A DNA stretch of 56,812 nt, counting the filler, from Sphacelaria rigidula (lineage: Eukaryota), in NCBI GenBank assembly GCA_964200075.2. It is 6 parts of 6 records of this genome, joined end to end, with 100 filler letters (N's around TTAATTAATTAA, not from the genome) between each part and the next. Parts side by side here need not be neighbours in the genome. Positions count along the whole stretch, not along the records: positions 9,487 to 18,872 come from CAXNAA020008616.1; 5 more parts are not named here. One strand, given 5' to 3'. Below, one piece after another: positions 9,387-55,671 of this stretch; the first letter of the stretch is position 1, and every line of letters starts with the position of its first letter. A program made the position numbers and the translations under genes. The notes below the pieces were generated by a model. It was not told the origin of the DNA, ran no database searches, and was given only the letters and a program-made list of their open reading frames with translations.

Positions 9387-9486
9387 NNNNNNNNNNNNNN
9401 NNNNNNNNNNNNNNNNNNNNNNNNNNNNNNTTAATTAATTAANNNNNNNNNNNNNNNNNNNNNNNNNNNNNNNNNNNNNNNNNNNN
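9387..9486. other. Artificial contig linker (N44-TTAATTAATTAA-N44); also at 18873-18972, 28358-28457, 37843-37942, 47328-47427
   Basis: The identical 100-nt spacer, with stops in all six frames, occurs five times and separates pieces of 9385-9386 bp (size-sorted contig concatenation). Confidence 0.98.
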
Positions 9487-9635
9487 CGTTCAGCGGCCGC
9501 CGCAACTTCTTCTCTTTCTTCGACCGATGGTACGTGGCTAGACTCGCTTCCTGCTGGATTCGTACTACTGGAGGGTTTCGGTGACGGCACATCGTTGAGG
9601 TTCCCCGGGAGTGCGATACTACCCGGGGCGCACCT

Positions 9636-11674
9636 TCAGGTGGTGTGCTCTGCTCCGTCTTCGTGTTCGCTCTCAAATTCGAGTCCGGTAATAGCGGAAA
9701 TCATTTCAAGTTGCTCAGGGGATACCGTGATGCGGCGTCTTTTGTTGGGTTGTTCTGATTCGTCAGCTTGGTGTGTACGTTTCGCGCTTCCTGGTTGTGA
9801 TCGGTATGTCTGAGAGTAAAAGCCCCTCGGTAAGATATTTACCTCGTGTATGTAGGGGCACCGAGGGCGTCTGCACTCTACCCCAAAGGCGTGTCGAAAG
9901 CAAATTCGTGCGTTGCGCAAGAAATCTGTTATCTCCGTACGAGGAGAATCTGGTGAAGGGGGGTTGCTGATCGTAGCCGTGCCCACTTGGCCCTGGGTTG
10001 TAGTTGGTGTGGAACCTCCCTGGTATGTACTTGTGTGCGAGGTGTTATTGAATTGTTGGGTTTTCCCCGAGAACGGTACACCGTGCTGACCCGGAACTGA
10101 GGCGGGTTGGTTGGAAAAGGCTGCTACTGTGTTGTGACAACTCAAGGTAGGATTTCCCGTCTGGCACGTAGGAGCGCAGTGATGACATGATAGGTTTGGC
10201 GATTGCCATATACTTTGTTGGGAATTAGAGCAGATGGTCGGGTTTGGTTGTATGTTTACGCTGCCTACGTTGCATGCTGCTATCGCGTGGTGTCTGGCAA
10301 GGAGTGCCTTTTCCAGATCTTGTTTCGACTGTCCCATGAGAGCGCGAAGTTCAGCGATGGACGCTGCGCGGGACGTATTGCGTGAGGTAGGCTTGGTGGT
10401 GGATGTTGAGTCTAGGTACGCAGTGCTTCTGTTTCCCAACAGCTTCACAAAGTCGAAGAAAATTCTCTCAGCTACATTCCCTCTGTTCGCCATTCTTGCT
10501 CCCAACGGATCTTGTGCTTCTACCCGCAAGGGTCGTAGTTCTAGTGACACTCTCATCACCTGGTGGTGCATGATCGATTGCAGGCTAGACTGATCCAGGG
10601 CAGAGGGGATGAGTAGTCTGAGAGCTCGTTCAATTAGATCATTGAGGTGAGATTCGGAAATATATCTCCAAAAATAGATCTCTTCGGATGCATGAGGCAT
10701 TTCAGAGTCTACAGTGAAGGCCCTGTAGAGCAACACTAAGCGGCGTGCGGCGGCCGACCAAGCTTCCCCTTGTTTGATCGTTATGTTATCTAGGGCGAGT
10801 CGCGCGACCTCTGTTGCTCCGGGTTGGAGGGCGGATTCCCGTACTAATTTACGGAGCCATTCTGTTACTGAGACTTCGTCGGGTTGTAGTGTTATGAATG
10901 ACCCGTGTATGGTGGGGACTTCCACAGCTCTACCACTTTGTAGTTCGTCGTGAGTGCCTAGATAGTCTGCCAGTAGTTCGCTAAGTAGCTCTATACGGGA
11001 AGACGACATCCCATCCGGAAGTGGGCGGTAAACTCCGGTTTGAGTGTTGGTGTCATTGGGGAGGGCCCATATCCCTTGGTCCATATTTCTGAGAGTCTTA
11101 GCCAGCTTGTCGCAGCGAATATAACTGCGCATGTAGTGTGAGATGTTTCTACTTCGCCCCCACCTAGTCCGACAAAAACCGGTTCCGAAGCATTTCCTAG
11201 CTTACTGTGTATGCGGCGGATGGCTTTACTGCGTGCGTCTGGAGATAGTTTATGGTTGTACGTCATACCTGGGGTCCCTTGTGAGGTGACGGTGGCACCC
11301 TGCTGGAGTACCTGTTGTTGTGCCGACGACCCGCCTCCCTGGTTGGCTGTGGTTACTGGTACGGTTGGTGGTTGCGCATACCCCTGGTGGTGCTGGTTAG
11401 CAGCTTGTGGATAAGGGCGTGGTGGGGGTGGAGGCGGCACTACATTTCCTTGTTGTGGATGGGACACTCCCTGTGCTGGTTGTTGTTGGGGAGGAGGGTA
11501 AGGAGCAGGGGCACCCTGTTGTCCTACGGGGGCGACATACCAACCACCACTGGCAGGCGGGGGAAGTGGTTGAGCTGCCGGGGCCGGTATTTGGACCGGT
11601 TGAGCCTGGGGGGGTGCGTGCTGGTAGGCTCCCCCCACTTGTCCGATCGCAGCGGCATGCGCGTACATGTTCAT
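9636..11674 (-). pseudogene. gag: Gag-like ORF of Ty3/Gypsy LTR retrotransposon (P/Q-rich N-terminus, C-terminal CCCH finger), one frameshift at ~11110
   Basis: ORFs 10991-11674 and 9636-11132 join into one protein collinear with 53985-55670 (VPTIHGSFITL..EWLRKL..ALDNITIKQGEAWSAAARRLVLL..SEMPHASEEIYFW vs VPGVTGNFIRV..EWLRKL..ALHNMKLPKNESYVAAAHWLILL..ASPHLAEGEYF*). Contains CFRHAFGVECRRPRCPYIH. The homologous C-terminus in contig 6 directly precedes an aspartic protease. Confidence 0.8.
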
Positions 11675-13299
11675 GCTTACCTGTCGTGAATAGCGTGAGG
11701 ATGTGCGTATGGTTTTTCAGTGCATGAGTGTGTATGCTACGCATGCTCAGAGTGGTTGTTACCTGAATCTATGTCGAGGGTGTACCGCCCGGTGTAGGAG
11801 ACGTCGGTAAAAAAAACAAGAGTAAGTACGGACTGATAATAAACCAAGTGGCAGTTACTCGCTATTTTGTTGAGCTGCTCAAATCAAATGACCCAAGACT
11901 TCGTCTGAAAGAAAAAAATGAATATTGACAACACAAACTAATATTAGCAACACTTGGATCCCCGTCGGCACTTACCCAGCAGGTGAAGTATACCTTGAGT
12001 TTATGTTGGGCGTGACTCGACGTACAAAAATGCGGGGGAAAAAAAGAAGGAGAAAAAAAAATGGGGCTGAAGAACAAATGTGTAAAAGCCAATGAAGAGA
12101 AAAGGAAAAAAATATATGAAACGCTGGTTGATGGTCGCTTGCGATTAAACGATCCTGCATGACGATTTATTTTGTGCGGGACATGAGCCTTTCCCCTTTT
12201 TTCGTTTTCTTTTTGGTATCTGTAGTCAGTTGACTGGGTTGTTGATACATAATGTTGTCATGTTAGATGATAATATTGATTGGCATTTCAGGGTTGTTGT
12301 TGATGGAGTGAGTGAGCATCGTTTTCCATCAGAGGTTGTTACCTGTCTGATCCGGGGTGAACAAATGCTGGGGAACCTGTTTTGTTACCGATCATGCGTA
12401 AAAGTAAAAAATAAAAAGGACTGGGCTCATGTCTCGCATAAAAAAACTTCATGAGTTCCGAATAGTCTCGCCAGTTGTCCATGTATCAGCGGTTCGGGTC
12501 ATAGTGTGCGCGGAGAATTTGCGCGCGGGGCGTCATTTACGTTAGGGGGTACGGAGTGATCAAGTGTGGCTGTAGTCCAGAGTCGTGCGGGTCAGTAACC
12601 CGTGTATTACCGCTGATCGGACCTTACATCGATGGTGGGGATCTCTGCGCATTGCCCGTTGTTTCGTGTAGTTCATCGATGGGCGGAGGGCATATATATT
12701 TAAAACTACAATTAAACTCTCCCATGAAAAGTGTGGCGTGGGAGTCGCTTGTGGACAAACAGGGACGGATGTCGCGTTTTTCTTTTTTCCTGCGGTCTAA
12801 AACAAAAGCAATTTCCACTGGTGGCGGCTGTAGTTAATTCGCGCATTGCATGTGTGATGTGTTTCGGGGTGTGTAAGAATAGTTCATGTTGATGAAAATC
12901 CCAAGTGTGTATCGTATAAATATCATGCATAGGTTACACGTCAGGTCTACCTCAGTGTAGTTTTATACGAAAGTTGATCGAGGCCGCCACCCGGGGAAAC
13001 ATATTTCATTGACTCGCACAAAAGAAAGAAAAACGTGCATTCGTTGTGTTCGGTCCAACCTAGCAACCCGCTGATTTACATATGCCTGGGTAGGGTTCTA
13101 GTTTTCAGGCTCTCGGTACAATATCCCAAAATCTACTGTGTTCGTACAGCTCTTACCCTGCTGCGCTGTATTATGTGTGTAATCTATCGTTGCACCCCAC
13201 CTGTTTGACTTGCCCGTGTTTGCTGATGTGAAGCGCATTGTTTCGTGGTATCAAGTCGCATGCATGTATCGAGTGCTTTACAGACCGTCTGCGGGGGAA

Positions 13300-13720
13300 T
13301 CCCGCGAAAAAAAACGATCCGCTCTGGCACACAAAACAAACAAACCAACTGCGGACCCCACTGGGCAAGTTGCTCAGGTGGGCACCTGCGAACACCTCCG
13401 GTGATGGGTTGTACCTTGTGCTGCTGTGAGGCCGACTACTGTTACCAATCATCACTGATGGTACAGCAGCTTCATGCTGGGTTAATCTGTTTGCCTCACA
13501 CTGCAGTGCGTCCCGTGAGAAAAAAAACGATCCGTTCTGGCCTGCAGAAACACACAAACTGCGGACCCCCCTGGGCAAGTTTCTCCGGCGGGTACCTGCA
13601 AACACCTCTGGTGATGGGTTGTACCTTGTGCTGCTGCGAGGCCGACTGCTGTTACCATTCATCACTGATGGTACAGCAGCTTCATGCTGGGTTAAATCTG
13701 TTTGCCTCACACTCAAGTGC
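13300..13720. repeat. Tandem duplication, two ~210-bp units
   Basis: aaaaaaacgatccg...ggtgatgggttgtaccttgtgctgctg...ggtacagcagcttcatgctgggttaa(a)tctgtttgcctcacact occurs at ~13300-13511 and ~13512-13720. Confidence 0.92.
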
Positions 13721-14608
13721 CTGATGCGTCTTTGATGGGACGGTGGTAGACGACCATGACCGAATGGGTGTACCTGTAGCTGCACCCATGTGGTATTTTT
13801 ATTTTTACCTCGTTTCGGCAGAGCTTTGATGTCTCAAAGCTGCGAGCACGGCGTGCAATCACGATTGCTCACGCATCTTTCCAGCGCACCTCGTGCCGTG
13901 TTTGTCGTCGAGAGTTTTGATGTATTACAGCTTCATGGAGACTACCGCATGTGAAAGGTGAGATGAGGCAACTAATTGTTCCTTTGACTCGGGGTGCAAA
14001 TGCTTGCACGCCATGACGATTGAGGGGTTGTAACAAAGAGACATTTCGTAGAAAACAAAGTCCGCTCTGCTGGTCTGGCTGCTATCAACATTTCATCCTG
14101 GGAACCTCACGCTGCGTGCGTGCGTTTGTCTCTCCTGCTCTCTCGAATTGAATACCATGTCGCAGACGCAAAGATGTATCTGTGTTAGACACGCAATGAC
14201 CTCTACCGATCGGGGACACGTTTCACACCAGACTTCGCTGGCTACCTAATTACCGTGACACTTTCATTCCGATACGGTCAAACCTACGGTAGGAACCACG
14301 CAACACAGATTGGATCTTGCCTGTCTCAGTCCTAGTGCAGAAGTGAAGATGTGCGCAAGCACCTTGCTCAGCATGTGGGTCGATCCTTGGTGGATGATGC
14401 GTGTCGTTAGCAGTGGTTAGCAGATACGAAGTGCAATACAATAGTCGGGCGACGATTATCAGTTTTGCCTTCAGAATTGGTTTGCTTTCGTGTGCTTTTC
14501 TCTGTGGCCCGGTAGGGGACGGAGTTGCACGATATGTTTCCCACCAAGTCATCATTAGACTGAAGAAGGTGTAGCCATCATCCAATTGCTCTATAGTCTA
14601 CTATACAG

Positions 14609-17437
14609 GGTCATTATCCACCCTATAACACTACGTCCTCTCCGGCAAGGACGCGAAGACGAAAAAGATTGCAGATGTGAGACCTTTGGTCACTCTCGCG
14701 TACATCTGGAGTTGTCACGACAAAACGTGGCCGCTGACAAGTGTGGTGCAGGCCCGCCTCGAGAGCGAAGATTCTATTGGCAAGGTACGGCGGATCGAGT
14801 CGCGTAAGGTATGTGGAAGCAGATACTCCACGTGAGGATGAGAGTAGAGCGCTGAACAAGAGTGAGTATGAAGATTCCGTTTCTTTCAGCGAGTACATCG
14901 TCCCGCGTGTGCTCTCCTGCACCACCGAGACTGGCGTGTGTTCACAGCTGCACATTTGAAATCTTAGTCAGGGATACGAAGGGTGCTGGTGGCGACTTAT
15001 GACAGGGAAGTATATCTGGCGTTGTGGAGGGGCTTGTCGGGGTGAAAACGAAATACTCACTGATTGATTGCATCTCACTATCCAACGTGATCCACACTCG
15101 TATTATCACGAAGATGTTGCTAACCGCATTTTCCAATATGACCGTTCGGGGTCGGGCAAGATCTCACGGCTCCTGAAGTCACATGATATTGCGTAGTGCT
15201 TAACGTTGTCGTAACCAACAGAGTACTTGACGGCTGTTGAGGATTTACAACGCCATCATCGATAAGCAGCTTTTGTTTCCCCACCCCACACCCCTATGGA
15301 TTCAAACTTCGGCCGATTCATCCTGCGCCTGAAACTGCCCCCAAAACCTCGGCAGAGATCTCCTTCAACAGCAAACCTCGCCGCGTGGGGGGCCCTTTTT
15401 GGCCTCGACAAACAGTCGCAGTTCGAAGACAACCTCCGCCGAATCATTTGCAAGCAGGGAGTTGGGAGACAGGCCCTTATGTGGGCGCAACAGACGAAGC
15501 CAATCCAAATACTCCGCGGCCTAGGATGGAGTCTCCTGCAGGGGATTCAACGAGACGACACATTCGACCAAGAATTTGTGAAGGCGGAGGAGGCCCAGGC
15601 AGAGTTGGAATCGGGGACTGATGACATGCCTCACGTCGATGGCGGCAGACACGGTCGAGGGGAAACAATGAAGCGTCTAGGCGAGGACGAAAGCGCCCCG
15701 TACTCTTTTGCCCGTCAGCTTCGTGGAATGATCACCCATAAAATGGCGAAAGAAATAGATGGGAAGGTGGCCATGGCAAGGATGGAGGGGTTCATGCGAG
15801 GGCCCTTTAAGGGGCACCTGTGCAACATCAAGTCCAAACAGCTCCAAAAGAATCAAGGACGGGCAGAATCGAAGGACAGGCGCGCCAGCAACAAGTCAAA
15901 CTTCACCATGGGCATTAATGAACAGGCGCACATCGCTATTACGGCAGATCTGATCCAGTTCGACATGTTGACGATCGCCGAGTTTGTGAGTACAGGATAA
16001 CGTAGAGTGTGATATCGGTCGAGAGTCCTGCTACGACAGGCGCATAGGGGGTGTAAGATTCCACGAGGCAATTGGTTCATGTGTGCTTTCGCCGACATCA
16101 GACACTCGCAGTGCGCTGTTTTCGGGGTGCAACCGGTGTGTAGCAGTGTGAACGATCCATTTTTGTGTACAGCGATAGCATTCGAACAACCGTTGCAGCT
16201 TCCAGCGACTCGCGGAAGGGCTCATGAGATCCAGTCATAAGGTTGTATAGAGAAGAAGTCAAGAACCTGAAATCGTTCGGTAAAGTGTCCGCGCGAAGTG
16301 TTCGCGCGCTGCCCATGCTAGACTTATCTGGTATAGCAAGCCCTGCCGTCCGTGGATTGCTAACAAACAGAAGCCCGGATCCAGTCAATACAGCTCGTCC
16401 ATCCACTGCTGCCAAACGACAAATTGCCACCCCTGTACAGCTTATGCCACCATCGAATACAAAGGGAGAGGCGCCAACGAGCCTGGAATCGAGGATCAAC
16501 GGCGTGATATTCATAGTTATGGGAATACTGCACGCGGCTGCACACAGTCGACGTAGGAACACAAGTAAGAAGGCAGCCGCGGATTTTGACGCTGTTGCAC
16601 GGCATCTGAGGGACGGCCCCTTCGTGTCATCGTTACTGAGCGTCAACGCTGCTCATCGCGTCAACGACGAGCTGTTTCTATCAGATGAAGAACGAGATCG
16701 CGTCAGACGCGCACGCAAGGCCATGACCGCAGGAGCAGACGATGGCGCCATGCACACCACGACGAAGGAGGCCACCGGTCACAATACGACGACAACGGCA
16801 TCAGGTAAGCAGTAGCCTATCGATACCCCGTTGGTCGTTGATTCCCACACGTTGGTAGACACTGTCTTGCCTCTGCGGAACGGAAATACCTGGTGTAGGC
16901 ACGGTGCGAAGAGGAAATGGAGGCGTGAGACGAGGTCGAGTGCACGATAGGAGTGGGCCTAATCCCTCAACGTCCCATGCAGTGCAGCCCGCTATACACC
17001 GGCGCAGCGCAGACACCCGCCGACCAGCAATAAGTCGGATTGTCTAATGCTGAGTGCGTTCCAACATCACCCGCTGCTGCTTGTTCGCAAAACAGCAGGC
17101 CTTGTGACTTCGTCGCTGCAGAAACGACCGACACCCATCACTGCGATGTCCGCATCCTCCCTCTTGCTATCGTTTGTCATTAGAGCACCCTTTTATCTCC
17201 ATCTTCATGCCACTTACTACACACATCCTCCCGATGTGCATGAAACGCTACGCACTCGACGCAGACGCGGGCGTGGGATATACGCCGATTAAATTTTTCA
17301 CCGTACAAAGCGCTGACTCTGCGGTAAGGGAAGCAGTCGTCAGCCTTCGTCCGCAGGACGTTAATCGTCTGCGACAGCTAATCGGACATGCGGGAGGTTC
17401 ACTGCCCGTCAACATTCACCTGCCGGACGAGCGGTGA
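14609..17437 (+). pseudogene. Decayed multi-exon gene of unknown function, antisense to gag
   Basis: Protein-like blocks 14609-14808 (YVLSGKDAKTKKIADVRPLVTLAYIWSCHDKTWP..., then GTATGT donor), 15296-15986 (then GTGAGT), 16243-16805 (then GTAAGC) and 17184-17437 (after tttgtcattag). A few in-frame stops; no family recognised. Confidence 0.45.
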
Positions 17438-18610
17438 GACACAATGACTCGATGTGACATAGATAAATCCAACGTCAGTGGTAACTTTGCTAGTACTGGA
17501 GACACGAGGCTATGGTAGGTTGTGTATAAAGTATGCACACTGCGATACAGTCACACGTGCGATGAGGAAAAGGGTCACAACGCAAACTCCGCTCAAACGC
17601 AAGAGGTCATGGAACCCTGCACAGTGTTACTCAAGAAGCGAGTGGTGAAAGAACAGGCAAACAGGTAGGATTCACTGGGCGATCCCCCTCGCCGACCACA
17701 GACACAAACGGTTGGTTGATCATTGACGCCGAAACGAATAACAAAGTAACAGGCTTGATTGATTGCGAAAGAAACGAGTGGTCGAGGATGGATGAAGGGG
17801 CTGTCCCATCTTAGCGAAGCGTGTCCCCGTACGATCCGTAGGACAAATACTGTCAAACCATGCCATCCACATCAATGAACGCTTCATACACGAGAGTTGA
17901 GGAAGGTGTTTTCTGGTCTCAGAGTCCGACTGGAAGGATTGAATGGCAACATTTTAGAGTGAAAATGTTTTTCAGATTCAGAGCGTGTTTAGTCTTGGCT
18001 GCCACCTTGCATACTGCACCTCTGAAGGTCGAGGCTGGCATCCAATACAGACTATTCGGCTGAAGTGTTTTAGTTTTCATAGATAGCGAGTTAAACCTGT
18101 CTCTCCAACTTCACTGGCACTGCACGCGCTCGCGCCACACGCGACAATTCGGTCGCCCCTAGAACAATTCCACTATAATTTCGATGTCCATAACGTGGAG
18201 GATGTCATCCTATTCGCAGACGTGGGTACTAACGAGTCCTGTGGATGGCATATCATGCTACATTGACTTATTACGTCCGGCTCCCTTGAGAGTAACGCAA
18301 ACGATAGTGTTGTGGAGGACGTAACACCTATAACAACATATATATTCGTGACATGGAGAGTAGAGCGCGAATTGAGAGTGACCTTGATCATTCGCTTAAA
18401 CTTAGCCAATTTATCATTCCGTGTGTCCTGTTCTTTGCCTCTATCATTCCCGTGTGCTTCCAGCTACACGTCGATATCCTGATCAGTGATATCAAGCGCC
18501 TTAGTGGCAAGCTACTACAGAAAGAGTATCGGGCCTCGTGGAGGGACATGTCGGAACTGAAACGATGAATCCATTAATTGACCGCATTTCACTCTCAATC
18601 GTATCATCTA

Positions 18611-18625
18611 CTCTCAATCTCACCA
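18611..18625 (-). promoter_or_regulatory. Candidate tRNA primer-binding site (TGGTGAGATTGAGAG), 6 nt inside a putative LTR end (...AGAACA at 18632)
   Basis: TGG-start motif, 10/11 identical to the candidate PBS at 49472, in the same orientation as gag. Confidence 0.45.
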
Positions 18626-18972
18626 AAACATTGTTCTATCCATATTCCTCCGGAGGGATGCGCGGCCTTGGAGACTGAAATCAGGCCTGAAAAGGGTGCA
18701 ATCCAGGCGGCGGATATAAAAAAATGCACACGTGGAGACGTTTCATTCCTCTGAAGGCGTGCGCGTAAACCCTCTGCACGATCGCAAGAAGACAGGTCCT
18801 AACAGGATTGCCAGAAAAATGACAAGGTATTTTGAAATGAGAATCCACCGCTCCCCGGGATTGTGTCCATTTNNNNNNNNNNNNNNNNNNNNNNNNNNNN
18901 NNNNNNNNNNNNNNNNTTAATTAATTAANNNNNNNNNNNNNNNNNNNNNNNNNNNNNNNNNNNNNNNNNNNN

Positions 18973-19170
18973 TTGTTGCTTGCCTTAGTCGTTTGACCAT
19001 TGACCACGCATCCCTTTCGAGACGGAGCACCGTTCCTACTCCTAATAGAGACACCTTCAACATTCTGGCGCTCATTATTTTTTATGACGTTTCTTCCATA
19101 CATTACACAAGAACCTCTTACATATCTTATCCCCGTCCTGCTTCGCCGTCTCTGGCCACCATCTATTAAC
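18973..19170 (-). mobile_element. LINE 3'-end fragment
   Basis: Translates to ...NERQNVEGVSIRSRNGAPSRKGCVVNGQTTKASN, the family ORF2 terminus; its 5' junction lies at a G-run. Confidence 0.85.
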
Positions 19171-19850: not shown

Positions 19851-22024
19851 AAAAGTCATGACTACGAGTCAGCGGTCTTGGTGAAGACAACTGAATAACT
19901 CGAGCACACGAATCGTGCTCGTGGTGTTTTCAAGAAACATCAACGAGTGCACTCGTTTCGACAAGTAATGACTCGTCCGACGTATGCAAGTTTTCGCCGA
20001 CAAAATGTATACACAGCATACGCAACTACTGCAGTGCATCCATCCTTGTGCTCAACTCCTGCTTTATGCTGCAGGGTTGCGACCGTAGCTAGCGATGAAT
20101 GGTGTGTACTAGTTTGCATGATCATGCGAACGGATGGTATGTGGCGCGGTGGTCTGTCAGTTAGGGGTCAAGCGCCTCTTTGTGCTTTTTCCTCGCATGT
20201 TTGTCAGACAAAGGCGAGCTTGATTGTTTTTCACCTCTTCTCCGCTGTTGAGACCACCAAGGCCGTGTCTTAGTATATCATTTTTCGATTGAAAACATGC
20301 GGCGGAAAGCAGAAACTGCGATGGAATAGGTCGCAATTTGAACTAGCGTCTAAATAAACTACGACAGCTGACTAACAGTGCCGGTATTGGAAGGATGAGC
20401 CTTCGTTTGTGACCACGGGTTCGAGAGATCGGACTAATGTGCGGAAACACTAATGTAATACAAGAAAAGCTGAAATCACGGCCTATAAAATGGGAGTCTT
20501 CCTTTCCCACCGTACATTTTCCATATAAAAATGATATGTGAAGGCACGCCGTAGTGATAAAACAATCGTTGATGCCAACTAGGAGGAGCAGAATGCTGTG
20601 AACATATGCGATGGCAATTGTTTTTTCCACCGCACTTTTTCGAGCGACAAAAACATATACGAAGATATGTAATCTATGGGAGAGTGTTGACGTCGAAATA
20701 TGATGTTTCACTGCTGGTACACACCATCCGCCTTTGCTTGCTTTGGCGCCCACCCGCGACGGGCAGGAATCACTAAACCAAACCCGATTGGCCCCTCTGT
20801 ACCTCTCCATGCATGAGGCTCGTTCCCCAGTTGAGACGAACGCCTATTCCGTGGCAACAGAAAAGGTGAACACCGGTCGCTTAGCGTTGTCCACTGACCG
20901 CGAAAGGAACAGGTACCAAAGGAACAGGTACGGTAGGTACTGATATATTGAAATACCGGGGTATCGTGGGTATCGTAGGCACGACACTTGAAAATACCCG
21001 ATTGGGTCGGTATCGGTAGGGTATGAGATGTCCGAAATACCATCACGGGGTACCTGCCTTACCCTCTATACCGATTTCAAAACTGCCACCCGGCAGTGCG
21101 GAGGAGCGTTTGAATTCCCTGTGCGAGTTCGGAAGTCAAATAATGGATGTGCCCAAGGTGGGCAGCGCAATCCCCACACGCACACAACGCACAACGCTAA
21201 CCTGCAGACCTCAAAGCACATAGTACCCGATCATAACCACCAGCTGGATTATTGCAACCAGCTGACAGGGTGAGATACCCAATCCATGGATCGATCATGA
21301 GTACCGCGTGGTGATTTTCGTGGTGATTTACGTGGGTGCAGAGACGAGAGCACTCTGAGGATAGAGCAGTACGAAGTGCAAATTTGAAATTCAATGGTCA
21401 GTTTTTCATCTCGAGGGGGTAGCGCTGTATTTTGTGGCACGAAGGAATTGCAGTAGTACGCAAGACCAGGGTTTGCCTCTCCATGTGGTTGTACTTTTTC
21501 ATGTAGAGCACCCGGCAATGGCGCAGTAATAACGGTATATATATGTATCTGTCTAAATATGTATGTGCGGTTATTTATTTGGTATTCTGGCACCTTGTTA
21601 TCTATTTTGTATGCCTCCTGCGATCCCTTACCTTTTTATATGCTTTTCCTTCTCATTTCATTCTCTCTGCTTGTTTGCACGTGGAATTATATCGAGTATG
21701 ATGATCATCTTCGACATAAATGATAAAACAATGTACAGCACCGTAACGAGGATAAAATATGTGCATCTATTTACCCAGATAATCACACTACATAATAACA
21801 AGTTCATTCGAATTGATCCAAACACAAAAATCAAGGGGAATCAGGGTATATATTACTCGTGAAAAGAAGACATACCTGCTCTGACAACTTCTGGCCTTTG
21901 CGTATTTTGGGACCCGCTGCAGCACCGTTGGGATCGCATCGCGTCTGGTGTTTACCGGGTATGTCCCCGGTATTTCCCGGGGTATCCCATACCGTGGTTT
22001 GTGTGGGTATCGTAGGAATGAATT

Positions 22025-22500
22025 TTAAAAATATTTGATTGAGCGGGTACGGTAGGTATTGAAATCTAGAAATACCGTGGTATCGTAGGTATCGTAAATA
22101 TGAGTTTTGAAGATACCTGATTGAGCGGGTAGGACAGGTGTTGAATTATCGCAATACCGTCGTATCACAGGCATCGTAGGTATGGCATTTGAAAATACCC
22201 GATTGAACGGGTACAGTGGGTGATGAAATCTCGAAATACGGTGGTATCGTAGGTATCGTTGGTATGATTTTCGAAAATACCCGATTGGGCGGGTACGATA
22301 GGTATTGAAACCTCGAAATGCCGTGGTATCGTGGGTATCGTACGTATGCCATTCGAAAAGCTCGATCGAGCGGGTACGGTAAGTCTTGGAACCTCGAAAT
22401 ACCGTGGTATCTTGGATGTCGTAGACATGATATTTGTAAATACACAATTGATCCCGTATCGGTAGGGTGTGAGATGTTCCAAATACCGGAACCGGGTACT
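22025..22500. repeat. 82-bp minisatellite, ~5.5 copies; an isolated related unit at ~20925-21045
   Basis: gattgRRcgggtac..ggtattgaaatctcgaaataccgtggtatcgtaggtatcgt recurs at ~22037, 22119, 22201, 22283, 22365. Confidence 0.9.
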
Positions 22501-33372: not shown

Positions 33373-36007
33373 TGTAGCTAGCTCAGGGGGGAAACATTGC
33401 TAGTCTACAAAGTGTTGTCCATGAATATATTGTACCACAAACGGATCATGACGTTTTTCTGGCTCGGAAGGTGATCGAAGCGGATCCGCAGAAATGGTCA
33501 GCTGACCGGGGTCTACTGCCCATGCATTTGATTACTGCACACTCGACTCTACGCACGGGGCAAGAAAAAATCGATTCGGACCCCCTCAAAAGAGTTCAAT
33601 CACCTAGTCTGAACCGCTACGTCGTGTGGAGTATCGACCGGGCGAGAAGAAAACACTTCCGAAAGAAATAACGAGCAGCTTGAGTCTTCACCTCATTCCT
33701 GCTGGCAGCGGAAATACGGCAATTTTCAATCTGTGCATGATTTCAGTGCGTTACCATCTTTCGCATTTTTGCGGAAATATCGAGCGCCTAGTCATGCGGG
33801 AAAGCTTCGCGCCTCCCCCGTGGTCGTTATCCTAGTAACACGGCGTAGACACTGAATGGTAGATCCCCAAGGCGTTGTGTGCATGGCTTGTGGGGTGTTT
33901 TTGCTGCCCGAATGTTTCGTTTTTACATTGCTGCTGTCATGAACGGCTCTTCTGGTTATCGAGAGCACAAGCGTGCACAAGTTCTCGTGAATCGGCGCTT
34001 GTCCACGCCTTGTGCAGCCGGGGACAGTGGACCTCAGAAGGTGATGGGTGGTTGCGTCTCAGATCTGTGTCATCACATCCCTGCATGCTTTTCTCCTCAT
34101 GGTCCGTACGTTATCATTGTTCACAAGCAGAGTGTTTTTGTGGAGGGCAAGGTGTTTTTCAAGAAGAATTCAAGAAGATGAAAAACAAATGTTGGAAGAA
34201 AGAACTAAATACTTTCGAAAATGGTTTTCGGGTGGAGGCAACGGGGGCTACAGCAGCGACCAGTGAAATGACATTTCTCGCGCAGTGTTCTATTGCAGTT
34301 GCAATTTTGGTCCCCTCCAGACGCGCCCTTAAAAACTGGGGCTCCCAGTTTATATACCAGAAACTTGTTCCGAGGCTGGTCATTCACAGCTGGTGGTGAC
34401 TATCACACGAGTATATACCCAGTAGAACATTATACCGGGAAGAGATGGATAGATCCCTTGAGACCACGGGCTCGTTACGAGAAAGGAAAGGGGTTGGAGG
34501 TGTCATGGAGGAAATGCATGTAATGGCGATATGCCCACCAAATGTAGACATGCTATAGCGTAGGGTTCGAAGGCCATCACCCAAGCTCATCCCGAAAATG
34601 AAAAGACTTTGTCTGATACTATCGTAAACAAGAGCACAACACACGGGGGTTCGGCACAAGCAGTTCTGTATCCTGCAAACGACGAACGATGGACACAAGG
34701 GGCGTGACTACCGTAGTAGCTCGCAGCAAATTGTGCACGCGTACAGCAGCAGCAACACCAACAACATCTGACCGACGAAACAACTTGATAGCACCAGTTT
34801 TAAATGGTCGTTGGGTTAGTACCGCATTCTTTTCGCGTAGCGGGTTACCGGATGGCGAGAGACTCCCTGCGGGTTCCGGTACCGCTACCGACCACTGGTT
34901 GATTGACTGTTTTTTTGGTTGGTTGTAGTGCTCACGTTAAGGTATCCCAAAGCATCCAGGCGTGGTCAATATCCACAAAATAGATGTACCCACGGCTAAC
35001 AAAACGAAAGCACTCGCTGAAAAAAAAAGTGAAAGGAAATTGGAAGATTGAAATAAAAAGGTACAACAAACGAAGGGAGTAAACTGAAAAACACAAAAAG
35101 TTGGTCAAAGCAAAAACAAAAGAAGGTAGAAACACGGTTCGGACGAAGACATCGTGATTCTGTGGGAGATATCCCTTAGCAGTGACATATCAGAGACTGA
35201 TGTCACACATGTATACAGACCCAGTGCAAGCAGGGACGAGGTAGGAACGTTCCGGAAGGACCAGATTCCCCGAGGACCCTGTAATGCCAACGAAACTAGA
35301 CAACTCGGGGTGATGCCAGGAAGAGCCTAATATTCAGGACGGTCCAACATCCCCCGAGGAACCCGGTCGCCTCCAGCGACCACTCTGTGTCTGACCCACT
35401 TCTTGCCTACATCTCACAAGAGGAAATCATCGTCAGCTTCGGAGTTCCCTCGGCATCAGGACGATATCTCTTGGAACAGCCTCTTCCTTAGTCTGTCCCC
35501 CCTTGGATACGTCCTCCTTACACTGGCGACACCAGATTAAAACTCAAGTAAGACATCTAGTAGTAGGGCACACGTCTTTCATAAGAAGAAATCCGCCCAC
35601 AAAAAATTCACTAGAACAACTACTCAGGGAAGGGCCACCGCGAAGACCCTCCAACATTCAACCGCGGCCGTCACACCATCAGCTTCCACCTCGGCGGCGA
35701 AATCGGCAGAGTCCAGAGGCGCAGCACAGTCAGTAGTACCTGCGCCGGCCGACACAACGCTGCCCGCTCAACCCCCGTATAGCCACGGGGGGAAAAGCGA
35801 CAGCGACAACTCCGAGGGCTCTGAGCGGAGCAACGATATCCGTCAGGTGTCCACCAGTAGGTTTGATGCGCTTCGCGACCCCACCAATTTATCCTCATCC
35901 TCTACACCAACCCCTACGTCACAACCCACCGTCAAAGAAAGGCAGCAGAGCTCGCATATAGGGCGTGGGAGAGGAGTGACGAGGAGGGGACGGAGCCAGC
36001 TCCGTGG

Positions 36008-37400
36008 GTGATTCAAGCTTTGGGGTTTTCAGTGCCGCAGGAACAGGGAGTTTCACAGGTATCGAAATCGAGCAACCCAGTAGCGTCGGAAATAGAACAT
36101 CTAAGTAACCGTACGATGCTACAAAACAATACAAGTAAGCCCCAGAATAGTGTCAACGATCCAGTCGATAATTTCGAGGTCGAACTGCCTAACACTACGC
36201 CGATCCAATCCACAGAGAGCTCAGGGACTTTGACGTTAGAACCGCCAACAAGCCTCACTAACGTACAAGAAAACAGCCACAACATAGAGCCTCTGCCTAG
36301 TTCAGTGCTGACTCCGCCATCTACAAGCCAGAGTAGCACCATGAGAACTCAATTTTTTTCGATGAAACAATCGGATCTTCCATCAACGTCAATCCTAGAA
36401 GGAAAACGGAGTGAAGACGTGCCAGCAATTCTTGATGCGTTTCTCAATCGAGTTAGGGTTCATGCCCCTGAAGATTGCACAGAATCCACAGTACAACGGC
36501 ACGCCATAAAACACTTACCACTTATTCTCAGAGGGTCAGCAGAAAAGCTATACACCCCTCTCGGAAGCGGAAAAGTAGAGTGGCGTCCACTAGCTGTACT
36601 GCAGGACCTCAAATCGAGAGGAGAAGATACCGCACCCATCGCCCCGGAAACATGGACAGAATGGGTAGCGGCCTACACTCATCGCTTCTCTCCACCAAAC
36701 CAACCAGCAGTGTTTGCCCGTGCAATAGCCGATCTGAAACAAAAAAAAGATCAGAACGTAGACGGCTATGCACTGGAGTGTACGACTTCGATGGACAGAT
36801 TCGTGACCGAGCCTTGCGGTTGAAATTCCCTGGCCACGACACGCTTCGCTTCATAATAGACATGATCACACCAGCAGCATTTGAGACCGGGCTCAAACCC
36901 CATATCAGAGTTGAAATGATGAGAGAAGATAGTACGCTCGACTTCCAAACTGCGACAGCACGAGCGAAAAAACATGAACAAAACAATCTTCGCACATGGC
37001 CAAACCAAACGGGAGACACTCCCCATGTCTCGGCCGCAACTGTAGATTCCCCACGTCCACAGCTAGCGGAAATGATAGCCGATCATGGCGCAATCCCCAC
37101 GGATCTTCAGTCGCAGTCAAAAACGATCAAAGGAGAGAGAGGGACAGCGGAGAAACGGTCTGCTAGCAGAGACAGGAGCGCGAATAGATCAGGGGGAGAG
37201 TTGAAAAAAGCACGCTTCAAAGACAGTAACGATAAGAGTACATCCAACGACAAGTAGTTGAGCGGTAAAACGAAAAAATCGGTCCGTTGTGAGCACGCAC
37301 CATGCAGGTACAAGAACACACACGAGACAGCGGATTGCCGCCTTATGCAGAGCCATGTAGAGTTTGCTAAAAAGTACAACCCGTGAAGGCGCCCAAGAGA
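36008..37400 (+). pseudogene. gag: Gag of a second Ty3/Gypsy-type LTR retrotransposon family (frameshift ~36815, stop 37255)
   Basis: TWTEWVAAYTHRF...IADLKQKKDQNVDGYA (retrotransposon gag core), AFETGLKPHIRVEM, and a zinc-knuckle-like CEHAPCRYKNTHETADC at ~37288-37340. Confidence 0.7.
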
Positions 37401-39137: not shown

Positions 39138-40961
39138 TCACCGCAAAAGTGCTGGCCTAACGCGCGGGTTGGCCGCTTCCCCAAATTCGGTGCTATCGAC
39201 GCGCAAACTCTGCGACACAGCGGCAAGCAGGGTCGCCCCGTCCGGTACAGGCTTCGGGAAAACGCCAGCTGCGCCAAGCTTCCGATACCGCAACTCGTCC
39301 GATTTCGAACAGTTTGCTGAGCACATAAAGACGGTTGCGTTGACCCCACGTGACCTCAGCGTGGAGATATAGCCAGACCCGGTGATTTCACTTCCGCGGA
39401 AGCACTCGTCCAAAAACAAGACATCGTACGGTAACCCTTGTGTTGTTTTCTCGAGGCACTCCGGTAGGGAGGATGCTGTATCTACTGTCCACCCCAACGC
39501 ACCGATGGGTTCTCGTGTGAGCTTGCGCACAAGAATTCGGACATTGATGCTCTCGTCGTCTACTATCAATACCCTTAGCGATTGAATGGCCGTCGCCGGT
39601 ATACCCTTCTTTTCATACCCGCGGCAGCGCCCCTCTGCCAACACACTCGGCGGCCAAGGTTTGAGCAGCGAAGCGGACAAAGGGCTGGTAAGGATCGCGC
39701 TGGATGGTCCACACGTGGAGACTTCTTTTAACGATACCGTGAACGAAAAGGCTGTCCCGTGTTCCATGTCCGGAGATACAGGAGGACTAGAAACACGTAT
39801 TTTGCTTCCCATCCGCCCGACGATTACGCTTGTCAAGTATAGCCCTAGTCCCGTGCCCGAGCTTTTGTGAAACGTTTGGAATTTCGTGAACATGGCAGCT
39901 TGCTCCGCCGCCGATACCCCGGGGCCGTTGTCCTCCACCGAGAAGACTATCTCGTGGCTGTGACCCGTACGCCTTACCACGTTCATGCATAGACGAACAA
40001 GGCCCCCGTCTCCAACGTACTTGACGGAGTTGCTCAGCAGGTTTATTAGCACCTGCGATAACCTCGTGCTGTCCGCCAAGTAGTACCCGCCCGTTCCCTC
40101 CCCGGGCACGAAGATGCAGCGCGTTCCACGCGACGTGGCACTCAGAGCGCTTATCCGCACAGCGTTAGAGCACAACTCCGTCAAGCACGTCCGTGCAAGG
40201 TTCAGCGGCACACCAGACTCGAGTTTTGCTATGTTGAGAACATCATCCAACAACCGCGTGATGAGCTCCCCGCCGCGCATGCAGCTTTTGAGGTGCTCCA
40301 CGGTGGCGTGATCCAGGCCAGGGGTTTCGAGTAGCATGCTCTCAATCCCGTTGACCACATGATTTAGCGGGTTGCGGATCTCATGAAACAAATACTGGAT
40401 CATCCGTTGCTCCGCCCGCAGTAGTTTCCCCTGCTCTCCTATAAACAACCACCCCAGTAATATCAACGCGCACACAACCACTGTAATGATGACCGTTACC
40501 CATTGCCTCACTGTCCTCAGACGGTTCACCTCTGTTCTGCTCTCTAGCTCCAACGAAAGGACATAAGACTCCATGGCGTACAAGAATGCAGTGCCTTCCT
40601 CAAGCACATCCGCAAATTGGTCTCCCGCCAACGCCTCCAAAAACTTCTCAAACTGATGTGCAGTCTCGGCAGACTGAAGATATTCTTGAGCTTCCTTGAA
40701 TTGAACCAAGACACGGTCGAACACGGCTCGCGCGTGGGCAGGTGCGCCGGGGTTGAGCGGACAATACAGCGATAGCCGCTGTGACAACATTCTTTGTCTC
40801 CCCGCCCTATTGATGCGAGTTGCAAGCGACGTTATTGCCGAGTACGTGAAGCCTTGCAGATGAAACCCCCAACAGATCACCCCAGCCACATTTGCTAAAG
40901 CTAACGCTGACGCGACACTTGTAGCCAAGCGTGGCCTGTTTTTATCGGAGGTAACACACAT
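39138..40961 (-). CDS. Intronless membrane hybrid histidine kinase: TM - NarX/PilJ-type sensor - TM - HisKA - HATPase - receiver (607 aa from first ATG)
   Basis: P-box-like INRAGRQRMLSQRL after TM1; TM2 WVTVIITVVVCALILLGWLFI; H-box YLFHEIRNPLN; N-box QVLINLLSNSVKY; G1 VEDNGPG; F-box MFTKF; G2 GTGLGL; receiver LIVDD...LFLD...SAN...FPKP. Single uninterrupted ORF. Confidence 0.95.
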   Translation of the reverse strand: MCVTSDKNRPRLATSVASALALANVAGVICWGFHLQGFTYSAITSLATRINRAGRQRMLSQRLSLYCPLNPGAPAHARAVFDRVLVQFKEAQEYLQSAETAHQFEKFLEALAGDQFADVLEEGTAFLYAMESYVLSLELESRTEVNRLRTVRQWVTVIITVVVCALILLGWLFIGEQGKLLRAEQRMIQYLFHEIRNPLNHVVNGIESMLLETPGLDHATVEHLKSCMRGGELITRLLDDVLNIAKLESGVPLNLARTCLTELCSNAVRISALSATSRGTRCIFVPGEGTGGYYLADSTRLSQVLINLLSNSVKYVGDGGLVRLCMNVVRRTGHSHEIVFSVEDNGPGVSAAEQAAMFTKFQTFHKSSGTGLGLYLTSVIVGRMGSKIRVSSPPVSPDMEHGTAFSFTVSLKEVSTCGPSSAILTSPLSASLLKPWPPSVLAEGRCRGYEKKGIPATAIQSLRVLIVDDESINVRILVRKLTREPIGALGWTVDTASSLPECLEKTTQGLPYDVLFLDECFRGSEITGSGYISTLRSRGVNATVFMCSANCSKSDELRYRKLGAAGVFPKPVPDGATLLAAVSQSLRVDSTEFGEAANPRVRPALLR

Positions 40962-41854
40962 CGTTTTGATTGCACAGGTCACACGCGAAGCAGTATATGG
41001 CTTGTATTGAGACAGCAACTGCGGAAAGACTACTAACGCACGCACTGAAGCAGATCAATAAAATTTGGAGAAATGAAACTCGGTTGGATGGTTCAATCAA
41101 GCGAAAATATGCGAAACAGCATGCAGGTCTGGGTGAGAAATCGGAGCTGCAAGATACTACTTGTCAGGAATCGAGAAGCAGAAACCCAATGGTAGCGTGG
41201 GTGCACCTTGCCCGGACGTTGACGTGAAACGAGTTCAAAATGTGGCGAAATCAGGGTCTAGACGGCCAAGATGTGGCGTAGATCATAGAGGGGTTGTTTG
41301 AGGTTGTCCTGGAGGCGGAACTTGTGCCAATCAGAACGGCAAACATGATACTGCGGCGAGACCAAACTATCCAAGGGAGAATTAATAGATCACAATATCT
41401 TCGCCAACACGCCTGGCTGAATCCAGATACAGCGGGGAAAATATTGTAACATTGGGCCCTACCAGTACCGTAAAGTTGTGCAGACTCCCTGCAGGGGGCC
41501 ACTTTAAGAGCTCTCGTCGCCAATCGGGGAGAGGCAACCGTGAGTGCTCGATAGTATTTTAAGAAATGCAAACTATTCCACAACCATCTCACGCTGACAC
41601 GCACACAAGACAACTCGTGAACAAGTCGATTTTCGAATAAATAAAAAACTCGCGAACTGCAACTTTACAACAACCCTCAAAGCGCTGAGACAAATTTCCG
41701 GCGATGCTCCCCCACGAGCGCACATCTTTACCCGAAAGCGTCAACAAACCGTGGCGCAACCGATGGCCACGGTCAGTCTGGACGAATCACATTGACTCTT
41801 CAGCGTTCGTATAGACGCGTTGCTTGGTAAATAATCACATGTCGGACAGGTCAG

Positions 41855-42248
41855 CTCCTTGTAGCTCGAGCTAGCTCTTTTTTAGTGTAGCTTCCTACTG
41901 AGCTATGAGAGCTACACAAGCTACGCATGTTTGTCCTGGGTGAGCTCTGAGAGCTATATGAACTACGCATGTGTACCCTAGGTGAGCTACCAACCCGTAG
42001 TTCATCAGCTCATATTCGCCCTGAGTGAGCTATAAGAGCTACATGAGCTACGCAAGTTTACCCTCGGTGAGCAACCACCCCGTAGCTCATCACTTCATGT
42101 TCGCCCGGGGTGAGCCATGACAGCTACATGAGCTACGCATGTTTGCCCTGGATGAGCTGTGAGAACTTCAGTAACTGCGCATGTTTGCTCTGGACGAGCT
42201 ATGAGAGCTACGTGAGCTACGAGTGTTTGTCCTGGATAAGCTATCGGA
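41855..42248. repeat. GAGCT-rich minisatellite element, copy 1 (~42-bp unit built from 9-bp subunits)
   Basis: gagctatga-gagctacRt-gagctRcgc-atgtttgccctgggt repeated about 8 times. Confidence 0.9.
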
Positions 42249-42740
42249 CGTGCAGTAGTCACCAGTCACAAAATAGCACCGTTCAACATCGCAGCAGGCA
42301 ACCGCCCTGCCACCGTCATGGTATCAGCATTCGCTTCGTTTTCTTAGGTGAAGTTGGAATGCTCGGTGCGCATAAGTTGTCGCCTTCGGTACAGCTTCGC
42401 ACTATTGCTAATCTCGCCTGTGCACGTGCAGCTAGAAGAAGACCGTGTAGACCGTGTGAACGATTCGTGATCTACTCGTACTGCACAGCAGCAACGCTGC
42501 ACTACCATTTCTGAAGAGTTCATCACGCCTTCCACCATCGTTGTGGATGATATGGCAACGCAAAACCGTTGCCATGCGGCTTGTCTCTTAGCTTGGAAGT
42601 ACCGCTGTGCTGTTTGTATTGCTGTACCGTACCGCAGTGTAGTGTACCATTGTGTTCTGCATTGCACGGTGGAGTAACGTAATGTACTGCACTGCACTAT
42701 AGTTTCAGAAACGGTACTTCAGGCATTATTTCAGGAAACT

Positions 42741-43214
42741 CTAAGGCCGCTCCTTATGAAAAACAAACAAAACGTTCTGCAAAAATGTAATTGTGATCCT
42801 CCTTTGACGTTTTACGCCCTAAAAGAGAGCTAGGCGGAGTTTGACACCTCGGAATGACTTGCTCTACTCGTTGAGACGGTTCCAGGACATCTTCGTGTTT
42901 TCCGGTGGACGCAGTTTTTTTTTCTACCAACTTGCATTTTTGTCCAAGAACAATCACGAACGGTCAAATCTAGAGAAACTCATCTTTTTATCATTTGTTT
43001 ATCTGGACTCGACCGTCTCTGGATGAACATGTTTGTTCGGTCAACATAAAAACTGCAGCTACCGGAAACGCGAAGATGTCCTGAAGCCGTCTCAACGAGT
43101 AGAGCAAGTTCAAACTCCGCCTAGCTCTCGTTTAGGGCGTAAAACGTCGAGGAAGGACGAGAGAAGCATCTTTGTAGGACTCTTCTTTTCGCTTGCCAAA
43201 AGGAGCGAACTTAG
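42741..43214. mobile_element. MITE/foldback element with ~180-bp imperfect TIRs
   Basis: gacgttttacgccctaaaagagagctaggcggagtttga...acttgctctactcgttgagacgg is inverted at ccgtctcaacgagtagagcaagttcaaactccgcctagctctcgtttagggcgtaaaacgtc; ends ctaaggccgctcctt / aaggagcgaacttag. Confidence 0.85.
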
Positions 43215-43395
43215 GGGCTATGGGCTAGGGTGTCTTACAAAAAATATTAACTGCAAAAGTGCGGCAGGAAAGAAAAATTCCGATCTTACAAGTCCACGTC
43301 ATTCACGTTATTATATGTCTTCAACTCCTGATCACAATTCTTCACGCGCGGCCGGAAGGCGAAAAACGGAAAAGCTCCACACGTGAGACAAATCA

Positions 43396-43817
43396 CCTCC
43401 CTGTAGCTCGAGATGAGTCTTTTTGAGCGTAGCTCCCCACTGAGCTGTGAGAGCTGCATGTGCTGCGCAGGCTGCCCCTACGTGAGCTATGAGAGCTACG
43501 TGAGCTGCGCATGTTTGCCCTGGGTGAGCTGTGAGGGTTACATGAGCTACGCATTTTTGCCCTGGATGAGCTATGAAAACTACGTGAGCTGCGCATGTCT
43601 GCCCTGGGTGAGCTACCAATCTGTAGCTCATCAGCGTATGTTCGCCCTGGGTGAGCTATGAGGGCTATATGAGCCACGCATGTTTGTCTTGAGTAAGCTA
43701 CCAATCTGTGGCTCATCAGCGCATGTTGACCCTCGGTGAGCTATCGGGCGTAGCTTACATGTACATATTTGACTACAAGTGAGCTACGGCCCGCACATGA
43801 GCTAGCTTACGAGCTGT
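43396..43817. repeat. GAGCT-rich minisatellite element, copy 2 (direct orientation)
   Basis: Same leader (ctccYtgtagctcgag...tttt..gtagct..actgagct) and same 42-bp unit as 41855-42248. Confidence 0.9.
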
Positions 43818-45814: not shown

Positions 45815-45900
45815 GCGCTCCGTCTCGAAAGAGATAAGGGGTCAATGGTAAAATGACTAAGGCGAGCAACAAATGAGTACCCCAGCCCTGCCCCTCCCCC
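45815..45900 (+). mobile_element. LINE 3'-end fragment
   Basis: gctccgtctcgaaagagat..ggtcaatggtaaaatgactaaggcgagcaacaaatgagtacccc. Confidence 0.8.
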
Positions 45901-46417
45901 CGCAGCGCCGAAAATAATTAAAAAAAAAGTGCTGAGGGTACAGGGCAAACTTGTTTACTGCGCTTGGCATGAATGATTTTCAACATTTTTTCGGGGAATG
46001 CGGAGCGGATGCCTAGTATCCCCCGTTCCCCAAACTTTGGAATCAAACGTCTACCGTGATGAGCGGTAGCACACGGAAATACTGTTTAGAATCACCAACT
46101 ACCAACAAATGACGAGATCCGCCCTGTTCAGCCGGTAACTACTATTATAAATAAATAATAGTAATATTCTAAAACGCAGTTTCGGCGCCCATGCGGCTGC
46201 CCTTCGACGGACTGCTCTGCTGGCAACCATCAATTATTCAATTTACATTGATCGCATCCTCAATAACCACTGTCGCCGAGAGACACACTGCCTTGGTTGG
46301 GATCGCTCTTCTTGAACGCTGCGGCGTCAGCAGCAAAAACTGTACATGTACAGTAGTTTACAGCTAAAATAGACAATTTTCTTACTCTCTTCGTAGTCGG
46401 CGATTGTAAGCCGGTTC

Positions 46418-48110: not shown

Positions 48111-48111
48111 C

Positions 48112-55670: not shown

Positions 55671-55671
55671 C

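Follow-up and report, generated by a model that had tools for sequence, protein, structure and literature searches.

The window analysed here is a stretch of 56,812 bases from Sphacelaria rigidula (assembly GCA_964200075.2), made up of six 9386-nt pieces joined by N spacers, and it carries on its minus strand two diverged copies of the gag/pol junction of a retroelement, best explained as a Ty3/gypsy-type long terminal repeat (LTR) retrotransposon family with a CCCH-type finger in its Gag. The copy 1 junction lies at the low-coordinate end of piece 2 (9487-18872) and that of copy 2, which an earlier sequence-only reading of the window had called the 'contig 6' relative, at the low end of piece 6 (47428-56812). 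In both copies gag ends at a UGA, followed by a short spacer and a putative hairpin, and the best reading of this arrangement, which the sequence makes probable, is programmed UGA readthrough driven by the spacer and the hairpin. The features of the two junctions are:

9636 to 9638, minus strand: gag stop codon TGA of copy 1, from the sequence (...ACC ACC TGA) and the open reading frame (ORF) listing.
9629 to 9635, minus strand: 7-nt spacer AGGTGCG of copy 1, the same as in copy 2 bar the first base.
9603 to 9628, minus strand: predicted 26-nt hairpin of copy 1 (7 bp, bulged U, 3 bp, 5-nt loop; -16.4 kcal/mol).
9487 to 9635, minus strand: post-stop frame of copy 1, open over 49 codons up to the piece end, where the N spacer begins (ORF listing).
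9639 to 11201, minus strand: gag core of copy 1, a 521-codon ORF with capsid-like domains, a C-x8-C-x4-C-x3-H finger and an acidic tail.
10991 to 11716, minus strand: Gln/Pro-rich N-terminal part of copy 1 gag, in a frame that differs from that of the core (ORF listing).
47631 to 47633, minus strand: gag stop codon TGA of copy 2 (motif match and sequence).
47624 to 47630, minus strand: 7-nt spacer GGGTGCG of copy 2 (sequence and alignment with copy 1).
47601 to 47623, minus strand: predicted hairpin of copy 2 (5 bp, bulged A on the 3' side, 4 bp, 4-nt loop; 44-nt fold, -18.3 kcal/mol).
47428 to 47630, minus strand: N-terminal part of the copy 2 protease, in the TGA frame, with DTGA at 47477-47466.
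47634 to 48251, minus strand: gag remnant of copy 2, comprising finger and tail, truncated upstream and with an in-frame TAA at 47868-47870.

The predicted hairpin of copy 1 is composed of CCCCGGG (9628-9622), a bulged T (9621), AGT (9620-9618) and the loop ATCGC (9617-9613), with ACT (9612-9610) and CCCGGGG (9609-9603) on its 3' side. A 43-nt stretch of this junction folds at -21.2 kcal/mol (z -2.9), a value equalled by 2 of 200 dinucleotide shuffles, and over 86 nt the fold is not unusual. When the test was anchored, counting only those shuffles that form a closed hairpin 6-9 nt past the stop with at least the real stability, 10/300 reached the -16.4 kcal/mol of copy 1. The folding tool predicts no pseudoknots; by eye, the only candidate in copy 1 is a 4-bp complement between AUCG of the loop and CGAU 16 nt past the 3' arm. 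For the 49-aa product encoded past the copy 1 stop, no relatives were found among longer proteins. The copy 2 hairpin starts at the same 7-nt offset and consists of CCCUGGGGC, the loop CGCA, GUCC, a bulged A and CGGGG. Past its TGA the zero frame reads ...LPVTVLLDTGAGG, with LLDTGAGG in frame and DTGA 52 codons past the stop, while upstream the TGA frame holds homology to the Gag finger (tblastn of gag1 residues 415-469 onto 47999-47823, 34% over 59 aa). Since finger homology, TGA and LLDTGAGG all lie in the zero frame, copy 2, itself a dead fragment, has gag, stop and protease in a single frame. The sequence-only reading had reported in copy 1 a minus-strand gag TGA with a hairpin seven nucleotides on and 49 further open codons, all of which holds base for base; its two further claims, that nearly the same motif recurs in the diverged relative and that pol lies in frame past the stop, are borne out by the identical spacer offset and by the protease in the TGA frame of copy 2. 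As a side observation, an opposite-strand ORF of 162 aa (48163-48651, plus strand; no Pfam match) cuts off the copy 2 gag remnant and may be the end of another inserted element.

The two junctions have in common the motif TGA+RGGTGCGCCCYGGG. The pattern TGARGGTGCGCCCYGGG is matched twice in the window, on the minus strand each time (9622-9638 and 47617-47633), where 0.03 matches would be expected, and none of 100 shuffles had two. When copies 1 and 2 are aligned at the nucleotide level, 1 of 12 columns is identical upstream of the TGA, whereas 15 of 17 are identical from the TGA onward; past a variable 5-9 nt the region of the 3' arm matches again (CA-S-TCC-(A)-CGGGG-R-AC, by eye), after which similarity is lost. 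The island of similarity thereby spans about 40 nt and takes in the stop, the spacer and both hairpin arms. In the alignment, nucleotide-level conservation starts exactly at the stop, which argues that the island is tied to the stop. Between these two DNA copies the base of the stem shows one one-sided change (C-G to U-G), and the upper stem is built from different sequence, AGU/ACU in copy 1 and GGGC/GUCC in copy 2.

A third lineage probably carries the same island. Two proteins with a shifted frame, P0068 and P0097, belong to the P0001/P0002 group, with about 37% identity to gag1. At the point of termination of P0001 and P0002, P0068 and P0097 show PEGAPRG.. followed by ..H.RGT.., the peptide that the island encodes in its +1 frame (PEGAPRVVSHSRGT in copy 1, SEGAPWGRSPRGT in copy 2). 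Their Pro-Glu pair fixes N-G-A at the point where the in-frame relatives end, and TGA is the only stop of such a form. Among the determinate bases of the back-translations, 20/26 in P0068 and 18/30 in P0097 equal those of copy 1. These determinate bases are zero-frame codon positions 2 and 3, and all four lineages agree at the synonymous positions past the stop (..G, ..C, ..C, ..G). This agreement speaks for a constraint acting on RNA and not on protein, an argument that GC-rich third positions weaken. The tail of another relative, P0130, could be fitted to the island in no frame, and the argument does not draw on it.

The stop itself is a property of the family. A profile of the gag core matches 686 representative proteins at E<=0.001. 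For the survey of stops we took the 56 aligned rows and removed the window, P0015 (identical), P0025 (misaligned and lacking a finger) and 9 rows ending before the finger, leaving 44 relatives; all 44 end 21-116 residues past the last His of the finger (median 65), and none reaches the protease. Likewise, among the 150 matches listed of the 686, all 35 that reach profile position 555 or beyond end between -49 and +31 residues from the profile end, and three exceed 1000 aa, namely P0035, P0102 and P0034, the last a gag with a long Gln/Pro-rich N-terminus. Some of the relatives' tails may have been cut by contig ends, yet a continuous gag-pol frame would have surfaced. For the sequence-only reading, a lack of the stop in most intact copies would have counted against its proposal; 0/44 relatives run into protease, and this, like its other predictions that could be checked on sequence, came out for the proposal. 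Scans of viral_contigs, metagenome_contigs and genome_contigs with the gag protein and alignment found no DNA of these relatives. Eight loci in viral_contigs matched the junction motif, and we rejected them as chance matches because they have no gag or protease similarity and a GC content of 55-71%.

What lies beyond the stop can be followed in the relatives. P0156 is 81% identical to the post-stop product of copy 2 over the aligned 25% of the query. When its ESM Atlas model was compared, all ten rows were clusters with retropepsin families on record (TM 0.60-0.70), the families being RVP, RVP_2 and Asp_protease_2; in rows 1 and 10 the aligned part is covered by none of them. The AlphaFold2 (AF2) model of the protease had a predicted local distance difference test score (pLDDT) of 36 and was not used for structure search, and phmmer of P0156 against PDB sequences returned nothing meaningful. 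The motifs DTGA (copy 2) and ILGASFF (in a third fragment, described below) are present, and these we take to be marks of retropepsins; the downstream protein models as a retropepsin. With the copy 2 junction read through as X, the query recovered only P0156, which starts past the junction, and no junction-spanning protein. The gene models P0035 and P0102 join the family gag to reverse transcriptase, RNase H and integrase in Ty3/gypsy order (P0035: RVT_1 619-681, weak, RT_RNaseH 805-885 and rve 1093-1179; P0102: RVT_1 and RT_RNaseH_2). The domain order protease, reverse transcriptase, RNase H, integrase is seen only in such gene models of relatives, the window pieces ending or breaking before the reverse transcriptase and none of the copies in the window being full-length. 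We also observed that P0035 and P0102 leave out, as a supposed intron, the stop along with most of the protease, a systematic annotation artefact of this family.

Pfam yielded no match for gag, the tails or the protease. The AF2 model of gag, built from 56 aligned sequences, has pLDDT above 90 over approximately residues 30-260. Foldseek found no PDB match for it at E<=0.001; in an exhaustive structure alignment, retroelement capsids made up the top 5 rows and 18 of 50 rows. The best were Copia (Z 7.3), the capsid (CA) C-terminal domain (CTD) of murine leukaemia virus (MuLV; MLV CA-CTD, 7.2), PNMA2 (6.5, twice) and MLV CA (6.2), followed by Rous sarcoma virus (RSV) CA (6.0) and the N-terminal domain (NTD) of Ty3 CA (5.5), as well as the capsids of Ty1, Arc, PEG10, MOAP1, the human endogenous retrovirus HERV-K, feline immunodeficiency virus (FIV) and equine infectious anaemia virus (EIAV). 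These matches place an N-terminal domain at residues 22-135 of the model and a C-terminal domain at 128-264. As the Z values are middling (5.5-7.3), the capsid identity rests on the enrichment of rows and on no single row; taken in that way, the upstream protein models as a retroelement capsid. Its finger (approximately residues 430-455) has the form C-x8-C-x4-C-x3-H, thus CCCH-type and not the usual CCHC knuckle. Upstream of the finger, a motif AA..NQ.AS.PG.HGVPF is strongly conserved across the family.

Public sequencing runs contain the same junction. In total, 14 rows from seven studies contain part of the stretch, and 9 of them half or more of its words; none of the runs listed is recorded as RNA. 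The junction is unchanged in the main contigs of four runs, X1 record 1 and X5 record 18 matching it letter for letter. TGA and hairpin are spanned collinearly by contigs from X3 (3038 nt) and X7 (2498 nt), which extend past 9487. Diverged short contigs also lie across the junction (X1 record 2 with 12 other letters, X5 record 17 with 9). In the X3 contig, 17 of the 18 differences fall in 9789-10976 and at most one in 9487-9788, a spread that gives a weak hint of extra conservation around the junction. In the contigs of X1, X3 and X7, a 2-letter length difference at 11111 joins the frames 11716-10991 and 11201-9639; since these contigs keep one frame, the window copy carries a gag frameshift that other copies lack. 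Over 9487-12000 there were no joints in the four contig runs and no loose end at GTGCG among those listed, which, in contigs, is no evidence against splicing.

How could such a junction work? In structure-dependent readthrough the stem is proposed to exert its effect at the mRNA entry channel (PMC3159437), and the spacers that precede it measure 7-8 nt: 8 in MuLV, where a pseudoknot follows, 8 in tobraviruses, 7 in the furovirus coat protein gene and 8 in Drosophila hdc, which has UGA-A (PMC3159437). We read the island as a readthrough stimulator because its UGA, conserved 7-nt spacer and GC-rich stem match this layout of structure-dependent sites. On this reading, Gag would end at the conserved UGA, and the approximately 40 nt directly 3' of it would be the recoding signal, made up of a sequence-specific 7-nt spacer (RGGUGCG) and a GC-rich hairpin with a base of CCCYG paired with CGGGG. 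With the UGA in the ribosomal A site, the hairpin would stand at the mRNA entry channel and slow termination, so that a near-cognate tRNA would decode the UGA in a small share of ribosomes; these would go on to translate protease, reverse transcriptase, RNase H and integrase without a change of frame, and the outcome would be much Gag and little Gag-Pol. Formation of the hairpin in the RNA, its stimulation of readthrough and the efficiency of that effect are steps that we infer. A bolder proposition can be derived from the same data, namely that the 40-nt island (UGA, RGGUGCG and the hairpin CCCYGGGG/CCNCGGGG) would constitute a class of UGA-readthrough stimulator in eukaryotes that is distinct, compact and portable, fixed across deeply diverged lineages of a large retrotransposon family with a CCCH-finger Gag, and that it may double as a 5' splice site, so that the ratio of Gag to Gag-Pol would be set by splicing and decoding together; this we consider doubtful. 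As for the original proposal of a recoding signal, it gains from the conserved stop, from the in-frame protease of copy 2, from the island that begins at the stop and from the third lineage, and it falls short in that the frame of pol is seen in one copy.

Several points weigh against readthrough. A purine after the stop, as found here, favours termination unless structure helps. (Selenocysteine insertion at the UGA can be set aside, since a eukaryotic selenocysteine insertion sequence, SECIS, would be needed in the 3' untranslated region.) The DNA copies of the junction are two only, and both are defective: copy 1 has the gag frameshift near 11111, and copy 2 its TAA and its truncation. The copy 1 piece ends 49 codons past the stop, before any protease, so that in-frame pol is proven in copy 2 only, and in copy 1 the +1 frame is likewise open, from 9700 to the piece end. 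The copy 2 hairpin alone is no better than that of shuffled sequences, 68/200 of which fold equally well, with 40/300 reaching it in the anchored test. The third lineage is deduced from peptides, in which every third base is undefined. Rfam, including its gag/pol readthrough models, had no relevant match at E<=10 in 9487-9800 or 47428-47800. Finally, the junction of Tca2, a Ty1/copia element of Candida albicans, gave by itself no UGA readthrough in Saccharomyces cerevisiae and contained a minor promoter (PMC2194720).

The Tca2 result also favours the alternative that survives best: the stop would be conserved, pol would be expressed from an internal promoter, by internal initiation or by a bypass that needs distant sequences, and the island would serve dimerisation or packaging of the RNA through the self-complementary CCCCGGGG. 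Indeed, the palindrome CCCGGG is present in both hairpin arms and could pair between two RNAs. However, conservation begins exactly at the stop, which ties the island to it, the 7-nt spacing fits known structure-dependent readthrough sites (PMC3159437), and copy 2 has no in-frame ATG between TGA and DTGA; we regard this explanation as unlikely. Next comes splicing. The letters RG|GTGCG could be a 5' splice site, a donor past the gag stop joined to a far-downstream acceptor to give a gag-only mRNA, with the hairpin modulating the donor, and this might operate with or instead of readthrough. Both copies retain GGTGCG, which the back-translations of P0068 and P0097 also allow, and splicing to make gag RNA is a known retroelement strategy, used by Drosophila copia and by Arabidopsis Ty1/copia elements (PMC2194720; PMC5580714). 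Yet the donor sits past the TGA, and therefore splicing could not express pol: the unspliced RNA would still need a way around the stop. A donor would moreover account for some 9 nt and not for a 40-nt island with two complementary arms, and the X3 and X7 contigs cross it collinearly, although their status as RNA is a guess and contigs show no absence. As an explanation of the island, splicing thus seems to us quite unlikely.

Two further alternatives fare far worse. Chance and decay, under which the TGAs would be inactivating mutations in dead copies and the motif leftover homology in GC-rich DNA, could draw on the defects that both window copies have elsewhere and on the ease with which GC-rich DNA folds by chance, as the shuffles of copy 2 illustrate, but it is very improbable given that 0/44 relatives pass into the protease, that the motif occurs twice against 0.03 expected, that identity rises from 1/12 in the flank to 15/17 from the stop, and that the same island appears in the third lineage and the same junction in contigs from public runs. 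Ribosomal frameshifting upstream of the TGA, for which the open +1 frame of copy 1 leaves room, is hardly credible, since the zero frame of copy 2 holds the protease motif and the +1 frame of that copy is closed some 22 codons past the stop, and no slippery heptamer was seen, with no search aimed at one.

Programmed readthrough at the gag/pol boundary has precedents. In-frame gag-pol stops are already known in MuLV, Tca2, Skipper and Tj1, and the signal described here adds a member with a gag family that has no Pfam model; in Skipper, a Ty3/gypsy element of Dictyostelium, a potential pseudoknot follows the stop. The closest parallel in layout is MuLV, in which an in-frame gag/pol stop, a short sequence-specific spacer (8 nt there, 7 nt here), a compact GC-rich structure and a protease in the same frame are found together (PMC3159437, PMC2194720). 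The two nevertheless differ: (i) MuLV has UAG and an H-type pseudoknot, whereas here there is UGA and only a hairpin is evident; (ii) there is neither an Rfam match nor sequence similarity between them; and (iii) host and element family are unrelated. Tca2 also has a gag/pol UGA with a short spacer and a predicted structure directly 3', but it belongs to the Ty1/copia elements, and its 8-nt spacer is rich in purines and is followed by a pseudoknot (PMC2194720). Among Ty3/gypsy elements, Tj1, Tosmo1-3 and Tcry1 of fission yeasts carry an in-frame Gag/Pol TGA in a conserved nucleotide context, and for Tj1 transposition the stop is reported to be essential (bioRxiv 10.1101/2022.12.06.519325). Their shared context is an 8-nt GAA-TGA-CT, and the available part of that preprint mentions no structure, whereas the contexts here are ACC-TGA-AG and GAG-TGA-GG, which do not conform to it: the codon before the stop varies (ACC/GAG), a purine follows, and conservation extends over 40 nt with a hairpin. 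The same preprint cites Leng et al. 1998 for the in-frame-stop strategy in Skipper, with the stop between gag and the protease gene (bioRxiv 10.1101/2022.12.06.519325). The Skipper finger is CX2CX4HX4C (PMC5006619), in contrast to the CCCH type seen here, and the sequences are unrelated. Alphaviruses, tobraviruses, furoviruses and Drosophila hdc and kelch share with our junctions the UGA, a conserved spacer of 7-8 nt and a stem, with UGA-A in hdc; their stems, however, are typically of at least 12 bp and span approximately 100-270 nt (PMC3159437), compared with a compact hairpin of 23-26 nt here, and they belong to RNA viruses or cellular genes and not to retroelements. The sequence-only reading had drawn the MuLV parallel, which stands, but it undersold the precedents, as in-frame TGAs had already been described in Ty3/gypsy elements of fission yeasts and an in-frame stop in Skipper.

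The general picture is unchanged: ever since MuLV, gag-pol has been known to be expressed across an in-frame stop followed by a 3' structure. In the full-text literature searches that we made, no retroelement recoding signal of such a kind was described in algae or stramenopiles, and the words readthrough, frameshift and stop codon are absent from the main text, as available, of a transposon survey of Ectocarpus (PMC12477816). If confirmed, our reading would add a structure-dependent UGA readthrough site from a eukaryotic lineage for which we found no retroelement recoding signal described. The signal is short (about 45 nt) and could serve as a leaky-stop expression tool in algae. It would also help annotation, since gene finders at present break such elements up or place spurious introns around the stop, P0035 and P0102 being examples.

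Piece 6 holds further material of the same kind:

55991 to 56812, minus strand: third fragment, from a near-identical element: protease and the region past it, interrupted by stops and a frame change (frames, and alignment with the gag-pol gene model P0035).

Its positions 56701-56812 are identical to 47428-47539 at 111 of 112 bases, so that the last and the first 112 nt of the piece are direct repeats, and the sole difference creates a TAG in the right-hand copy. These repeats are either two copies of one protease region or an assembly wrap-around beside a poly-G run. Past the repeat, the fragment continues into the rest of the protease (...VRVVDGLQYGLILGASFF...) and the post-protease region, where the stops and the frame change lie. 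A third gag-like sequence (53433-55601, plus strand; over 305 aa, 25% identity to gag1) carries Gln-rich repeats at its N-terminus and is interrupted by a stop at 54252-54254, which closes the ORF 53433-54254; it lies in the opposite orientation and adjoins the broken protease/post-protease fragment at about 55610, an arrangement that suggests nested or rearranged elements.

Elsewhere in the window, another retroelement is found on the plus strand (35867-36820 and 36472-37254), in which a weak Pfam Retrotrans_gag match (E 6.5e-4, below the cut-off) is followed by an overlapping frame; this may be a frameshift-type gag-pol junction of an unrelated family. A hybrid histidine kinase ORF of 638 aa (39138-41054, minus strand), host or bacterial, combines a PilJ-like N-terminus with HisKA, HATPase_c and a response-regulator receiver domain. 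The N runs between pieces hold a TTAATTAATTAA linker, and features near 9387-9486, 18873-18972 and the other joins are joining artefacts. Diverged tandem or dispersed repeat arrays, 74-81% identical, occupy 21989-22499 (piece 3) and 41836-43744 (piece 5), and a short repeat family is common to pieces 1, 3, 4 and 5, for example at 2624-2787, 18973-19083 and 45800-45901.

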